From a virus (Duplodnaviria; Heunggongvirae; Uroviricota; Caudoviricetes): a DNA stretch of 37,440 nt. The DNA is taken from the IMG/VR virus record IMGVR_UViG_2541047705_000012; one strand, 5' to 3'. Position numbers and translations under genes: made by a program. Position 1 is the stretch's first letter; each line of letters opens with the position of its first letter. Below the pieces are notes generated by a model. It searched no databases and was not told the DNA's origin. It saw nothing but the letters and a program-made list of their open reading frames with translations. Of this stretch, positions 29,940 through 37,103 are shown piece by piece.

Positions 29940-30452
29940 TTACTCAGATTTGAACTTTGGTTCTGGCAAAAGAGGAGGAGTTGAGTCCTCGAATCGTAGC
30001 CAGTGCTCCCAGATATCGTGGGATTGTAATTCCAGAAGACCAATTTGACGTGATGCAACTGCAGTGCCAGCTATAGTTCCTCCTGCATAATCAACCTGGA
30101 CGGACTTTGACGCTTTCTCAATTAATTCTGTCCAAGCTTCACTTTCCGCGTTAAAAGAAGCAGTTAATTCCTGCAGACGCTGTGGATCATCCTTGTTGTC
30201 TTGTTTCAAACGATTCAGGGCGGCCACCGAATACTTATTCTTAACCCAACTAACCTGAGCTAACTGAACTCTCTGACAAGCGTCCATATCAGTAGTTGTT
30301 TCCTGAGGCATATCAAAGCAGGAAATAAAAAAAGTCTCAACACCATCATTTAGACTACTGCTCGGCTGGTTCAAAGCATCAGAAGCATTGGATGCTATCG
30401 GTATTATCAGTGCTACCGACAGAATCAAACGTTTAACATAAATCGCTCCCAT
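29940..30452 (-). CDS. Secreted/periplasmic protein with N-terminal signal peptide; weak resemblance to the DUF1311/LprI family is a guess
   Basis: 170-aa ORF convergent with cI, with its own terminator; hydrophobic N-terminus (LILSVALIIPIASNA). Confidence 0.45.
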   Translation of the reverse strand: MGAIYVKRLILSVALIIPIASNASDALNQPSSSLNDGVETFFISCFDMPQETTTDMDACQRVQLAQVSWVKNKYSVAALNRLKQDNKDDPQRLQELTASFNAESEAWTELIEKASKSVQVDYAGGTIAGTAVASRQIGLLELQSHDIWEHWLRFEDSTPPLLPEPKFKSE

Positions 30453-32300: not shown

Positions 32301-32825
32301 ATGTCATTTATTAAAACTTTTTCCGGGAAGCATTTTTATTATGACAGGATAAATAAAGACGACATCGTTATTAACGATATCGCGGTTTCTCTTTCAAATA
32401 TCTGTCGCTTTGCAGGACATCTTTCACATTTCTACAGCGTCGCCCAACATGCGGTGCTTTGCAGCCAACTGGTACCGCAGGAATTTGCTTTTGAAGCGTT
32501 AATGCATGATGCAACAGAAGCGTATTGCCAGGACATCCCGGCGCCACTGAAACGCCTTCTTCCTGACTATAAACGGATGGAAGAAAAAATAGACGCCGTA
32601 ATCCGTGAGAAATACGGGTTACCCCCGGTTATGAGTACGCCCGTGAAATATGCCGATCTCATCATGCTGGCAACCGAACGCCGCGATCTCGGGCTTGATG
32701 ATGGCTCTTTCTGGCCCGTACTGGAAGGTATCCCGGCAACAGAGATGTTCAAAGTTATTCCACTGTCGCCAGGCCATACCTATGGGATGTTTATGGAACG
32801 CTTTAAAGAGTTAACTGAGTCGTAA
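32301..32825 (+). CDS. HD-domain phosphohydrolase (YfdR-like 5-prime-deoxynucleotidase)
   Basis: H...HD metal-binding motif (VAQHAVLCSQ...ALMHDATEAY); start at the ATG at 32301 (GGAG 6 nt upstream). Confidence 0.65.
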   Translation: MSFIKTFSGKHFYYDRINKDDIVINDIAVSLSNICRFAGHLSHFYSVAQHAVLCSQLVPQEFAFEALMHDATEAYCQDIPAPLKRLLPDYKRMEEKIDAVIREKYGLPPVMSTPVKYADLIMLATERRDLGLDDGSFWPVLEGIPATEMFKVIPLSPGHTYGMFMERFKELTES

Positions 32826-32933
32826 AAATCAGCACGTACGAATTCAAACTCTGCCATAAAAGAACATATAAGTAATTTATTAACATATAGATATAGGTTA
32901 TATTACAAATTGAAAAATTATTGGAGAGCAACA

Positions 32934-33800
32934 ATGAATCAAAATCCATTCTCATTCTATGACTTTCTTGGATATTTAATACCAGGTGGTTTTTTTATCC
33001 TATTAATGTATTTCTGTGGTTTGACATTCGATCTAGATATTGTTATTGACTTAAGTGAATTGCTCAGAGGTCAAAGTCAAATCTTTGGCATTTTGAACTA
33101 CGCTTCAATAGTTATTATATCTTATATAGCTGGACATTTTATTTCTATCACGTCAGCATTTTTTATCGAAAAATACATGAATAAAGAATTAGGATATCCT
33201 TCCAAATATCTATTTAAAAAATTGATAGATACCTCAGAAAGCATTTGTAGCCCATCATGCGATGAGAGAAGCGCTGATAAAAAAACAAAAATAAAGAATC
33301 GCATAATCAAATGCGTATTATGTCCAATAATACTATGGGATTTTATAACACAAAAACTATGTTATTCTCAATCTCTACCATTTCATTTAGCTAATACAAC
33401 ATGGTTAATGATCAAAGAAGGTTATGAGAAAAAGTTCATAACAAATCGCCAATTATTACAAGATAAAAACGGACTTGATGATGATCTCTTCAGATTGGCA
33501 TATCATTATGTTTATGAGTTTTCAAAACAACATCAAACAAAAATTCAAAACTATGTTGCATTATATGGTTTTTGCAGAAACATATGTTTAATCTTTATAA
33601 TTTCATTTTGGGTATCAGTTCCAACCTTTATTTATCGATTATGTACTCATAGTGATTATCTTTATAGTTTACTTTCAATAATGCTTAGCTTTTTCTTCGT
33701 CTATGTTTTCTATGTTGGTTTTGTTAAATTTTATAGAAGATATACTTTAGAAGTATTAATGGCATTTGCTGTACTTCAAAGTAACGACACTATTCGTTAA
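32934..33800 (+). CDS. Low-GC integral membrane protein (two N-terminal and two C-terminal predicted transmembrane helices around a ~130-aa soluble domain); candidate superinfection-exclusion or abortive-infection gene
   Basis: Start at the ATG at 32934 (GGAG 7 nt upstream); own AT-rich promoter-like sequence (-10 TATATT at 32899-32904); no family recognised. Confidence 0.5.
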   Translation: MNQNPFSFYDFLGYLIPGGFFILLMYFCGLTFDLDIVIDLSELLRGQSQIFGILNYASIVIISYIAGHFISITSAFFIEKYMNKELGYPSKYLFKKLIDTSESICSPSCDERSADKKTKIKNRIIKCVLCPIILWDFITQKLCYSQSLPFHLANTTWLMIKEGYEKKFITNRQLLQDKNGLDDDLFRLAYHYVYEFSKQHQTKIQNYVALYGFCRNICLIFIISFWVSVPTFIYRLCTHSDYLYSLLSIMLSFFFVYVFYVGFVKFYRRYTLEVLMAFAVLQSNDTIR

Positions 33801-33841
33801 TAATGTTGCTCCCGTGTGCAGACGGGATAATGGAGAAACGT

Positions 33842-34048
33842 ATGCTGAACCTCGATTGTGTTCCTATCTCAACTTATTGCAAAGAAACTGGCGAAACTCC
33901 TGAAGCAATAAACAAACGTGTACAGCGCGGTGTTTGGCGTGAAGGTGTTCAGGTTTTAAAGGTTGAAGGCGTTAAGGAGAGGTGGATTGATCTTAGTGAG
34001 GTTGCAAAATGGGCCAGACAAAACTGCTCAAACTACCGCGCGGCGTAA
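33842..34048 (+). CDS. xis: Excisionase-like small DNA-binding protein
   Basis: 68-aa product (GGAG 6 nt upstream of the ATG at 33842) immediately upstream of and overlapping the integrase start. Confidence 0.55.
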   Translation: MLNLDCVPISTYCKETGETPEAINKRVQRGVWREGVQVLKVEGVKERWIDLSEVAKWARQNCSNYRAA

Positions 34049-34209
34049 CAATCAGGAAACACCACCAGGGAGAAACGATCAATATAACTTTCACCTACAA
34101 AGGAGTTAGATGTCGTGAGCCGCTTTCCAATCTGGAAGTAACACCAAAGAACATTAAATACGCCGAGTGAACCGCCCCGGGTTTCCTGGAGAGTGTTTTA
34201 TCTGTGAAC

Positions 34210-35100
34210 TCAGGCTGCCAGATCATCGTTTCCGATGGAAGCATAATAAGCTTTTTCTGCTTCTGCCGGAGGAGTATGGCCCAGCCTTTCCAGCAATCGT
34301 CGATTGTTATACCAGTCCACCCACGTGAGTGTGGCCAGTTCCACTTCTGCACGGTTTTTCCAGCTCTTACGGTGTATTACCTCCGCTTTGTAAAGACCAT
34401 TGATGCTCTCCGCCATCGCGTTGTCATACGAGTCGCCTGTACTTCCTGTTGATGCCAGTAATCCGGCTTCCTTAAGCCGCTGTGTGTAGGCCAGCGATAC
34501 ATACTGAGAACCTTTATCACTGTGATGGACCGTGCCGGACGGTCGACGGGCCCATAACGCCTGCTCCAGTGCATCCAGCACGAATGTCGTTTCCATGGAC
34601 GATGAGACCCGCCACCCCACGATGTATCCGGCAAACACATCAATGATGAACGCCACATAGACGAAGCCCCGCCATGTGCTGACGTAAGTAAAATCAGCCA
34701 CCCACAGCTGGTCAGGTCGTTCTGCCACGAACTGACGGTTTACGCGGTCGCCTGCGGCAACGGCTTTCCGGCTGATGGTCGTACGGACCTTTTTACCCCG
34801 GAGAACACCGGCAAGTCCCATAACCGCCATGAGACGTGCCACAGTGCATCTGGCCACTCTGATACCTTCCCGTAACAACTGACGCCAGACTTTACGCACA
34901 CCGTATACCTTGTGATTTTCATCGTATACGCGCTGTATCTCTTTCTTCAGCCAGTCATCGCGCTGCGCACGGGCACTGCGTTTATCCGGATGATGTCGCT
35001 GTTGCTGACAGTGGTAATACGTTGACGGGGCAATATGCAGTTCGCTGCATAGCGGTCCGACCCCGTACTGCTCACGCAGCTTATCCAGCAGTGGCATCAT
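34210..35100 (-). CDS. IS3-family transposase OrfB (DDE integrase domain)
   Basis: 296-aa ORF in the -1 frame relative to orfA, starting within the A-run at the orfA 3-prime end. Confidence 0.85.
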
Positions 35101-35423
35101 TTTTTCCAGAGGCGGTCGAACTCCGCCTTCGCAAAATAAGCGGAAGCCTGGCGAAGGATATCGTTACTGCGGCGCAGTTCACGATTTTCACGTTCCAGCT
35201 CTTTCAGACGCTGACGTTCAGCGGTGGTGAGCCCTCCATCACCGCCCCCGGTATCCCGCTCATGCTGGCGAACCCAGACACGCAGAGTCTCCGGCGTACA
35301 GCCAATCTTTGGAGCAATGGAACAAATTGTCGCCCATTGTGAGTCATATTCGCTCTGACTTTCCAGAACCATACGGACTGCCCGTTGACGGACTTCGGGG
35401 GAAAAACGAGTATTTTTAGTCAT
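35097..35423 (-). CDS. IS3-family transposase OrfA (HTH and leucine zipper)
   Basis: 108-aa ORF ending in WKK at an AAAAAA run, typical of the OrfA/OrfB frameshift window. Confidence 0.85.
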
Positions 35424-36485
35424 CCTGTTTACCTCTTTCTCAGGAAGTTTAGTCTCCAGGATTCCCGGGGCGGTTCAGAGCGTACACTCGGCGAAATCCA
35501 TAATAAGATCGAAAGGGGAACATTCATTTATGCAGAATATTTTCCCCGTTCTGCTCGTTTGAAAATTTTTGGTAATGCTGCTGCAAGCAAAACGGTAAAG
35601 ATGTACCTGGACGAATATCTTGAAATCTGCGAAACAAGAAAACTTTCACCCTCTACGATTGGTGGCTATAAAAAATGCCGTAGTGCGTTAGCCTCACTTC
35701 ACATTTGCCCTGCAAGTGAATTAACACCAGCAACCCTGAAAGCGTGGATTCAAAGCCAGAAAACAACCTTAAAAACCATTCGCAACCAGTTATCTTTCCT
35801 ACGGTCAGCACTTGATGAAGCCGTGACCGATGGGGTACTTCAAATTAACCCCGTATCGTTAGTAACAGCTTCGCGCTACCAAAGTGATAAGTCAGAAGCA
35901 GAAAGCAGCTATGTGGTTGATCCGCTATCACCAGCAGAAGTTGATGCATTACTAGCAGCAGCCGGAAACAAACAATGGGAAAATCTGTTCCGGTTCGCCA
36001 TACATACAGGCCTGCGTAGTTCTGAATTATGTGCCCTACGATGGCATGATATCGACTTTGTTGGAAAAACAGCCCATGTTCAGAGCGCAAGTGTTGTCGG
36101 AGTTATCAAAGGAACAAAGACAAAAGCCGGTACCCGTAAAGTTGAACTGACTGAAGAAGCAATGTTGGCGTTGATAAACCAGAAGCCATTTACATTCATG
36201 AAGGATGCTACTGTCTTTGAAGATCCAAAGACCAATAAACCCTGGGCAAGTGCTGATGCAATTAGGAAAAAAGCATGGGTGCCAACATTGCGAAAAGCAG
36301 GTATTCGTTACAGAAACCCATATCAAACCAGGCATACATTCGCCACCAGCCATATCAGCCGGGGAGCAAACCTGTTTTGGCTTGCGGCTCAAATGGGCCA
36401 TAAAGGGCCTGAAATGTTATTCAGGCACTATGGACAATACTTGAAAGAGTATGATGGGAGGGCAAGTATCAAGGATAAAAAGGCT

Positions 36486-37103
36486 TTATTTTAAGTCATT
36501 ATGCCAATCGTCTACTGTTTGAAACCAAATTTTTAACCTTTGCATAAAGGTACGATCCTTTTTGGGAGGGTGGTACCTTTGAAAAGAAGTATGTAACGCT
36601 TCGATAACTCCCATACAAGCATCAATTACTTCTTGTGCTTTAACCGGGCGATCGGCATCTGAAAGCTTGTGAGCGACCTCACAATCCAGAGTTGCTTTCT
36701 CTAGTACAGATGAGAACACCTCGTCAGGTATATACAGTCCTCTGCTTTCCAAAATGCAAATCAGTTTGGAAACTTGTTGAGCTTTAGCCAAGATAGTTAA
36801 CAAGTATGAAACAGAAGCCTTTGTTCTATCCTTTTGCAACCTTAACAATCGATGCTTTGATGCTCTAATTTTAGGTTGAGTTGTCTGACTGAGCCAATAG
36901 TTAGAAGAAATATCAGAAATTTCAATAACTAACTTTGAAATAGCATCAATAATTGATTTCGATTCAGAACGTGTCGCCAGTTTTACAGAATTATTGTACG
37001 CAACTCGCCATCCAATGAAAACTAAGCAGACGCTAACTACTGTGATACACCACGAATACTGTCCTATTTGTGCTACTAATGACATTGGTTCCGTACTGAT
37101 CAA
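36486..37103 (-). CDS. Hypothetical protein with N-terminal transmembrane anchor
   Basis: 205-aa ORF with a TTG start (AAGAGG 6 nt upstream), 10 nt after the upstream stop; convergent with and overlapping the integrase 3-prime end by 9 nt. Confidence 0.4.
   Translation of the reverse strand: MISTEPMSLVAQIGQYSWCITVVSVCLVFIGWRVAYNNSVKLATRSESKSIIDAISKLVIEISDISSNYWLSQTTQPKIRASKHRLLRLQKDRTKASVSYLLTILAKAQQVSKLICILESRGLYIPDEVFSSVLEKATLDCEVAHKLSDADRPVKAQEVIDACMGVIEALHTSFQRYHPPKKDRTFMQRLKIWFQTVDDWHNDLK

Follow-up and report, generated by a model that had tools for sequence, protein, structure and literature searches.

Csx27, a membrane accessory protein of type VI-B1 CRISPR systems, has had no mechanism assigned to it since 2017, and the effect described for it is a damping of Cas13b interference (10.1101/092577; PMC8209922). 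It was predicted on genomic grounds to form part of a DNA-uptake channel, and, according to papers that cite the proposal, a wider Csx27 family was described with operon links to natural-transformation genes (DprA/ComF), multidomain proteins of the ubiquitin system, WYL-HTH proteins and DNA-modification genes (Makarova, Gao, Zhang and Koonin, 2019, FEMS Microbiol Lett fnz088). Csx28, the accessory of type VI-B2, is a Cas13b-activated octameric membrane pore (PMC12669027). Here, we describe a prophage gene of Escherichia coli in a 37,440-nucleotide stretch of Caudoviricetes DNA (IMG/VR record IMGVR_UViG_2541047705_000012; the whole stretch is called the window below). Judged by sequence comparison, its product is a stand-alone, remote and partner-less branch of the Csx27 superfamily. 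We are confident of the three identity claims taken jointly, namely that the gene is real, that it is the cargo of a mobile cassette and that it encodes a membrane protein of this superfamily.

32934-33800, + strand: coding sequence of 288 codons plus stop, for a predicted stand-alone inner-membrane protein of the Csx27 superfamily (WP_001075212.1; PHROG 12528).

An earlier note on this DNA, made from its letters alone, had recognised no family for the protein, a statement that profile searches overturn. PHROG 12528, itself a family without known function, is matched end to end (E 8e-174, residues 1-288 against profile positions 1-288), and a remote homology to Csx27 emerges alongside it. Pfam returns no match for the window protein and only scattered chance matches for 133 members of the family. 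In PADLOC, the window protein finds weak matches to Csx27 and tm_4 only, and the NCBIfam model CAS_Csx27 (NF040557) reaches 14.9 bits (E 0.02; cut-off 65) on the N-terminal 39 residues only. Across the family, the PADLOC model of Csx27 is matched by 95 of the 133 members (best E 2.2e-10) and a second VI-B-associated membrane model by 29, while six relatives match PDC-M48A, also from PADLOC. With NCBIfam, CAS_Csx27 is matched by 22 of the 133, and no other family is recurrent.

The relationship was also examined in the reverse direction. Eighty type VI-B CRISPR loci were recovered from metagenomes by their repeat pattern, and their 431 open reading frames (ORFs) of at least 100 aa were searched with the family profile, which retrieved seven of them (206-259 aa; E 1.6e-10 to 3e-4). 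Five of these directly abut a Cas13b-sized ORF (1124-1213 aa), and all seven are bona fide Csx27, with 112-157 bits on CAS_Csx27 against its cut-off of 65. When the alignments of the two families were compared with hhalign, the probability was 96.5% (E 8.9e-10), reported for the N-terminal 60 columns only, and four motifs are common to the family and Csx27 in the same order. The register given by HMMER differs in that the second helix of Csx27 is aligned to a hydrophobic hairpin of the present family, and the alignment of the middle part is provisional, with the hhalign register favoured because of the shared G-H and YPS motifs. At the level of sequence profiles, we regard remote homology to Csx27 as established. 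The protein is nevertheless not a Csx27 proper: it scores 14.9 bits where 65 are needed, it has about 50 additional residues that include the hairpin, and no cas13b lies beside its gene, the neighbours of which are yfdR and xis inside the prophage; nor was a conserved large neighbour seen at any of the family loci examined. A literature search found no paper mentioning WP_001075212 and no link of Csx27 to prophage cargo; the membership list of the 2019 survey of the Csx27 family lay outside its reach.

Kyte-Doolittle hydropathy and an AlphaFold model built from the 133-sequence alignment place four transmembrane (TM) helices at about residues 11-31, 52-78, 216-237 and 244-266, as the earlier note had predicted with two N-terminal and two C-terminal helices. 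The cytoplasmic domain of about 130 aa that it had drawn between the two pairs of helices does lie there, but is not purely soluble, with residues 116-139 forming a hydrophobic helix-Pro-helix. Structure prediction, suggested at the time as a check, gives a confident model (predicted local distance difference test, pLDDT, 91.1; predicted template modelling score, pTM, 0.89), the fold of which has no counterpart among solved structures; a sequence search of the PDB with the family profile likewise returned no match. The parts of the protein are as follows.

32946-33026, + strand: N-terminal motif PFSxYDFLGYxxPG (aa 5-18) running into TM1 (aa ~11-31); nearly invariant in the 133 representatives and aligned with FSLYDF..PG of Csx27.
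33087-33203, + strand: TM2 (aa ~52-78) with a polar stripe of Y64, G67, H68, S74 and E79, followed by Y88-P89-S90; paired by hhalign with TM2 of Csx27.
33279-33350, + strand: hydrophobic helix-Pro-helix hairpin (aa 116-139, with P131); family mean hydropathy 1.87.
33480-33578, + strand: predicted cytoplasmic helical motif DDLFRLAYHYVYE...HQxKxQNYVALYGFxRN (aa 183-216), leading into TM3; aligned with DDLFxxAYYYLEY...FQSMYFFLRN of Csx27.
33579-33761, + strand: TM3 (216-237), a hypervariable turn predicted to be periplasmic, TM4 (244-266) and the predicted cytoplasmic K265-F-Y-R-R...E273..M276; Csx27 has FYRxKM at the same place.

Across the 133 representatives, 31 positions are near-invariant, and the block at aa 183-216 (consensus DDLF..AYHY.YE...H..K.QNYVALYGF.RN) is the best conserved after the N-terminus. 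The hairpin is as hydrophobic as the TM helices throughout the family, its P131 is conserved in at least 90% of sequences, and its helix is broken at residue 129 in the AlphaFold model. Lys and Arg are enriched on both hairpin flanks and at the C-terminus, which suggests an N-in/C-in topology with four TM helices and, on the cytoplasmic side, a hairpin that is re-entrant or interfacial. By the positive-inside rule and the model, both termini would be cytoplasmic, and the hairpin would dip into the inner leaflet. On the same model, a helical bundle that continues the TM helices would make up the cytoplasmic face, and every strongly conserved polar or aromatic residue (D10, Y14, H68, S74, E79, H191, H200, K203, N206, R215, K265, R268 and E273) is predicted to gather there. 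The periplasmic loops are the least conserved parts; in the turn between TM3 and TM4 (aa 226-252), the ratio of non-synonymous to synonymous divergence (omega) between two E. coli alleles is ~1.2, on only 27 codons. The conserved machinery probably faces the cytoplasm at the membrane interface, with the periplasmic side free to vary.

Could the ORF be a spurious or decaying one in AT-rich junk DNA? Such DNA can yield long ORFs, and the databases all label the gene hypothetical; in UTI89, the identical coding sequence is called by RefSeq as hypothetical protein WP_001075212.1. Against this stand the divergence of the two E. coli alleles (dS 0.60, dN 0.14, omega 0.23), the full-length homologues with invariant motifs across phyla and the confident AlphaFold model (pLDDT 91). 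The chance of a spurious ORF is negligible, the conservation data having already refuted it, and the gene is under purifying selection. The family profile gathers 945 cluster representatives (50% identity), nearly all of them 260-320 aa and full length, and together with the omega value these bear out the intact frame of about 288 aa claimed in the earlier note. With an E threshold of 0.001, a protein database search yielded 593 relatives, of which the 120 listed are mostly enterobacterial, and a pattern scan with one genome per species extended the range to Gamma-, Beta- and Deltaproteobacteria, Bacteroidota, Bacillota, Chloroflexota, Acidobacteriota, Spirochaetota, Gemmatimonadota and Acholeplasmataceae. 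Two further statements of that note, on a good ribosome-binding site and a base composition far below that of the backbone, hold as well: GGAG at 32923-32926 stands 7 nt 5' of the ATG, and the guanine-plus-cytosine (GC) content of the coding sequence is 28.4% (21% at third codon positions, GC3) against 50.8% for the window, the surrounding block having 26-31%. An alternative in-frame start, TTG at 32910, would give 296 aa in place of the 288 aa from the ATG.

The prophage is CPS-53/KpLE1-like, with the gene order yfdP-yfdQ-yfdR-[gene]-xis-int, and the gene occupies a slot between yfdR and xis.

32821-33800, + strand: AT-rich single-gene cassette of 980 bp in place of yfdS/yfdT; homology to a comparison prophage (L221) stops at 32820 and resumes at 33801; 26-31% GC.
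32826-32933, + strand: non-coding leader of 108 bp holding weak promoter-like hexamers and the GGAG; 100% identical between two alleles.
32301-32825, + strand: yfdR (HD-domain 5'-deoxynucleotidase), last backbone gene of the early-left block.
33842-34048, + strand: excisionase gene (xis), 41 nt 3' of the cassette gene.

In the comparison prophage, which has the same yfdR and the same xis-int, the slot is filled by a yfdS-like gene and a small ORF (71 aa); in K-12-like prophages it holds yfdS-yfdT, and in an O157 prophage a yfdS-like gene, a methyltransferase and an exonuclease. With other slot contents, the backbone yfdR overlaps the next gene; in the window, the last 5 nt of yfdR belong to the cassette. 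Of 5426 complete E. coli genomes, 205 carry the cassette DNA, all of them among the 2971 that have yfdR. The carriers comprise 181 at 95% identity or more (176 at 99% or more) and 24 with a second allele at 80-90%. This second allele does not differ at all over the 108-bp leader and the initial 120 nt of the coding sequence (32826-33053 against L002 8001-8228) and continues at 83% identity, an abrupt change that points to a recombination joint within the region of the conserved N-terminal motif. The earlier idea of horizontally acquired cargo is well supported by the sharp borders, by the presence of the cassette in 205 of 2971 yfdR genomes and by homologues in accessory slots of unrelated temperate phages: the cassette is a horizontally acquired, swappable, single-gene cargo of temperate phages.

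An Enterobacter prophage and Klebsiella phage P7641 carry homologues with about 50% identity that directly precede unrelated xis-int pairs, at the same pre-xis-int position within unrelated flanks; recurrence at this locus in other prophages, which had been put forward as a check, is thus seen in other lambdoid prophages. In 289 of the 5426 genomes, P2-like phages have a 42%-identical homologue, WP_000193205, between their gpA and gpQ genes, and the yfdR-xis cassette and the P2-hotspot homologue together reach about 9% of complete E. coli genomes. All enterobacterial copies have 30-34% GC in surroundings of 46-51%. The cos-proximal gpA-gpQ hotspot of P2 was shown experimentally to hold anti-phage systems (Rousset et al., 2022, PMC9122126). 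The hotspot table of that study has 161 entries for WP_000193205, labelled ‘hypothetical’ and accompanied by ParM/StbA partition genes and a DUF4760 protein, and the protein is not among the validated systems in the text (PMC9122126). In the P2-like phages, the homologue follows the DUF4760 gene by 39 bp, the two forming a small unit convergent with the partition genes. Identity with Rst_3HP or any other system of the study was rejected, as neither the P2-like homologue nor its neighbours match those PADLOC models. The DUF4760 protein (WP_001068329; 165 aa with a single TM helix, L220 3964-4461, also L088 4464-4958) has no PADLOC match and a single mention in the literature, and one phage record annotates the opposite strand instead. 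As a neighbour, DUF4760 is confined to P2-like phages.

In distant genomes, the surroundings of the gene vary. Among 79 loci from other species, BLAST clustering found no neighbour family within four genes on either side that recurs in more than three loci, and the Pfam content of 280 flanking genes (positions one and two on either side) is heterogeneous, with no recurrent DprA/ComF, ubiquitin-system, WYL or DNA-modification families. Since DUF4760 is P2-only as well, a conserved partner gene was rejected. Eleven distant contexts with Pfam annotation are mixed, some being defence or mobile-element settings and four lying between ordinary metabolic genes. The gene stands beside AbiH, beside a DpnII nuclease and methylase or beside ParE; in a mobile element, Hachiman is no more than 4 kb away; and further settings are an integrative element and a cassette-like run of small ORFs. 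These contexts fit a mobile single-gene accessory function that may lean towards conflict systems. The run of small ORFs (L094 5187-12659) comprises more than 12 co-directional frames (NADAR, RraB, NTP_transf_6, acetyltransferases) and resembles a gene-cassette array. In two Bacteroidota loci, L096 and L227 (6984-7627), the family member is followed by the same two small ORFs (141 and 68 aa), which may be a lineage-specific mini-operon; the surroundings otherwise differ, with Hachiman in one and the DpnII nuclease and methylase in the other.

How is the gene expressed? The earlier note had given it a promoter of its own and expression in the lysogen, and neither claim is supported. A consensus scan found no sigma-70-like site upstream of the gene. 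The best site of a relaxed scan, TTATTA-16-TATATT at 32877-32904, has 8/12 matches, and promoter-like matches have a density of 3 per 108 bp in the leader against 2.7 inside the AT-rich ORF, so that a promoter is not supported above the chance level of an AT-rich background, although the leader is fully identical between the diverged alleles. The gene runs in the direction of the early-left operon, and the 41 nt that separate its end at 33800 from xis hold no terminator-like site, so that transcription from a constitutive promoter would continue into xis. A hairpin at 33810-33827 belongs to the xis backbone, and an intrinsic terminator or a meaningful RNA structure between gene and xis was rejected (no U-tract, z-score -1.3). 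In the Enterobacter prophage, the gene starts 40 bp after the preceding one. In lambdoid prophages, it is probably co-transcribed mainly with the early-left/xis-int transcript, and in P2-like phages it would be part of the small unit in the cos-proximal hotspot.

What might a partner-less relative of Csx27 do? From sequence and genomic setting, we tentatively favour a self-contained, membrane-acting exclusion or abortive-infection determinant engaged in phage-phage or phage-host conflict, a reading that is quite possible though short of probable. The protein would act alone at the cytoplasmic membrane in conflicts between phages. It might block or gate incoming nucleic acid as this crosses the inner membrane, resulting in exclusion, or, on sensing infection from the cytoplasmic side, it might open a conduit that collapses the membrane potential, resulting in abortive infection. 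The superinfection-exclusion or abortive-infection role put forward in the earlier note is plausible on circumstantial grounds, from the P2 hotspot location and the defence or mobile-element neighbours. Several observations weigh against it. Searches of Pfam and PADLOC found no match to known Sie, Abi or defence models beyond the weak ones to Csx27, tm_4 and PDC-M48A, and where other contents fill the slot, these are ordinary early-left phage genes and include no known defence gene. In distant genomes, the immediate neighbours are often ordinary metabolic genes, and defence genes are adjacent in only a minority of loci. The conserved His, Glu, Arg and Lys residues would fit an enzyme or ligand site as well as a channel. 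Furthermore, Csx27, the only relative tested, lowers immunity by Cas13b rather than raising it, and tagged Csx27 did not visibly localise to the membrane (10.1101/092577; PMC8209922).

Much of the layout would equally suit an accessory gene of the phage early programme, transcribed from the early-left promoter after induction or infection and altering the inner membrane for the benefit of the phage, not a defence expressed in the lysogen. Such a gene might exclude secondary infection during lytic growth, adjust membrane physiology or take part in handling DNA. Its orientation with yfdP-yfdQ-yfdR and xis-int, the terminator-free gap of 41 nt before xis into which a constitutive promoter would read, the 40 bp to the preceding early gene in Enterobacter prophages, the replacement of the ordinary early-left genes yfdS/yfdT and the chance-level promoter matches upstream are all what this explanation expects. 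We nonetheless consider it unlikely. Most family members are chromosomal and have no phage genes around them, and their function therefore cannot depend on a phage lytic programme; the P2-like copy lies in a hotspot that holds exclusion genes expressed by the prophage, such as old and tin; and the 108-bp leader moves with the cassette and is identical between diverged alleles.

The cluster of the invariant or near-invariant D10, H68, S74, E79, H191, H200, K203, N206, R215, K265, R268 and E273 at the inner-leaflet interface, next to a re-entrant-like hairpin, would also be at home in a membrane enzyme, or in a transporter of small molecules or ions, that alters a universal component of the envelope and brings a benefit of the lysogenic-conversion type. 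The occurrence of the family in Gram-negative, Gram-positive and wall-less lineages would imply a universal substrate, and a few distant members stand beside glycosyltransferase, epimerase or fatty-acid/polyketide genes. Such polysaccharide or lipid genes, however, are neighbours in only ~3-5 of ~90 loci, sequence and fold show no similarity to a known membrane enzyme or transporter, and a patchy, accessory and phage-borne distribution is unusual for such enzymes, all of which makes this explanation quite unlikely. By analogy with Csx27, the protein might instead be a negative regulator or anti-defence factor that damps an immune or membrane-effector pathway of the host and so shields the phage. 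The homology itself speaks for this, as do the reduction of Cas13b interference by Csx27 (10.1101/092577; PMC8209922), its inclusion among anti-CRISPR-like inhibitors (PMC6538845) and the habit of phages of placing counter-defence genes in the early operon. Yet E. coli is not known to have type VI-B systems, most homologues are chromosomal and unlinked to any particular immune system, and the repression by Csx27 may be indirect; we hold an anti-defence function to be improbable.

An extension of the exclusion or abortive-infection proposal is conceivable, though on the unlikely side: that the partner-less branch is a self-contained, single-gene membrane module for immunity or the gating of DNA entry, with a fold not among solved structures, spread across many phyla and carried by lambdoid and P2-like prophages into ~9% of E. 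coli genomes. If so, a stand-alone membrane defence would be the older form and Csx27 a copy of it recruited by CRISPR systems, and the E. coli prophage gene would for the first time open the function of the family to genetics. New in any case are a stand-alone relative of Csx27 in well-studied E. coli (UTI89, CFT073, S88, ATCC 11775 and P2-like prophages), the definition of its invariant residues and a confident structural model, with which the family can be put to the test in the most convenient of hosts. Should the protein protect against phages or gate DNA entry, a single-gene membrane system would be added to the catalogue of defences and a recurrent ‘hypothetical’ of the P2 hotspot tables would be explained. 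Should it do neither, this is still a widespread membrane family that has neither a Pfam entry nor a solved structure.

Downstream of xis, the window continues with the integrase gene.

34009-36494, + strand: integrase gene, split by a 1310-bp IS3-family element.

The element (34168-35477), which we take to be IS629-like, is an insertion sequence (IS) flanked by a 3-bp GAG target duplication. Because the integrase gene is split by it, the prophage is probably locked in place. The insertion was seen in none of the 5426 complete E. coli genomes (best coverage 89%), and the only Rfam match is the IS frameshift pseudoknot ALIL (RF01497; 35026-35142, minus strand). On the other side of the early-left genes, a 170-aa ORF without a PADLOC match (29940-30452, minus strand) separates them from the cI-like repressor gene (ymfK). 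In an Enterobacter prophage (L085), this is the place of SieB, and the ORF may be a more classical candidate for a lysogen-expressed exclusion gene than the cassette gene. In UTI89, the interval from int to the chromosomal glaH contains three genes on the minus strand (36486-37103 of the window and beyond, L001 10348-12218), encoding a hypothetical protein, a STAS-like domain protein and a 303-aa hypothetical protein; they form a further cargo block at the end of the prophage.

Among described systems, those carried in the P2 gpA-gpQ hotspot (old and tin, and the ones reported by Rousset et al.) resemble the present family in that the homologue WP_000193205 resides there; they differ in that WP_000193205 is always accompanied by ParM/StbA genes and DUF4760 and has no PADLOC match to those systems. 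SieB of lambda and P22, RexB of lambda, Imm of T4 and gp15 of HK97 are likewise small polytopic inner-membrane proteins from accessory slots of temperate phages. SieB, in addition, shares the early-left position, and one Enterobacter prophage carries both SieB and a homologue of the window gene. There is, however, no sequence match to SieB (PF14163) or similar families, and the window family extends far beyond phages. Csx28 is a small membrane protein of the same CRISPR subtype and offers a precedent for an accessory that alters membrane permeability, but it is unrelated in sequence, has a divergent HEPN domain and needs activation by Cas13b, whereas the window protein is partner-less. From the wider Csx27 family, as papers citing the 2019 survey describe it, the branch differs by the absence of DprA/ComF, ubiquitin-system and WYL neighbours among the 280 flanking genes. 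The closest comparison is with Csx27 itself (type VI-B1; NF040557, PDLC01605). The window protein is longer (288 aa against about 200-260 aa), and its conserved hairpin, within ~50 extra residues, is absent from Csx27 proteins of 211 aa; its gene has no cas13b or CRISPR array nearby and is carried by temperate phages. What the two have in common is four TM helices and an ordered set of motifs: FSxYDF..PG before TM1; G-H or I-H in TM2, then W/Y..YP(S); D(D)LF..AY(H/Y)Y..E ... F.RN before TM3; and FYR(R/K) after TM4.

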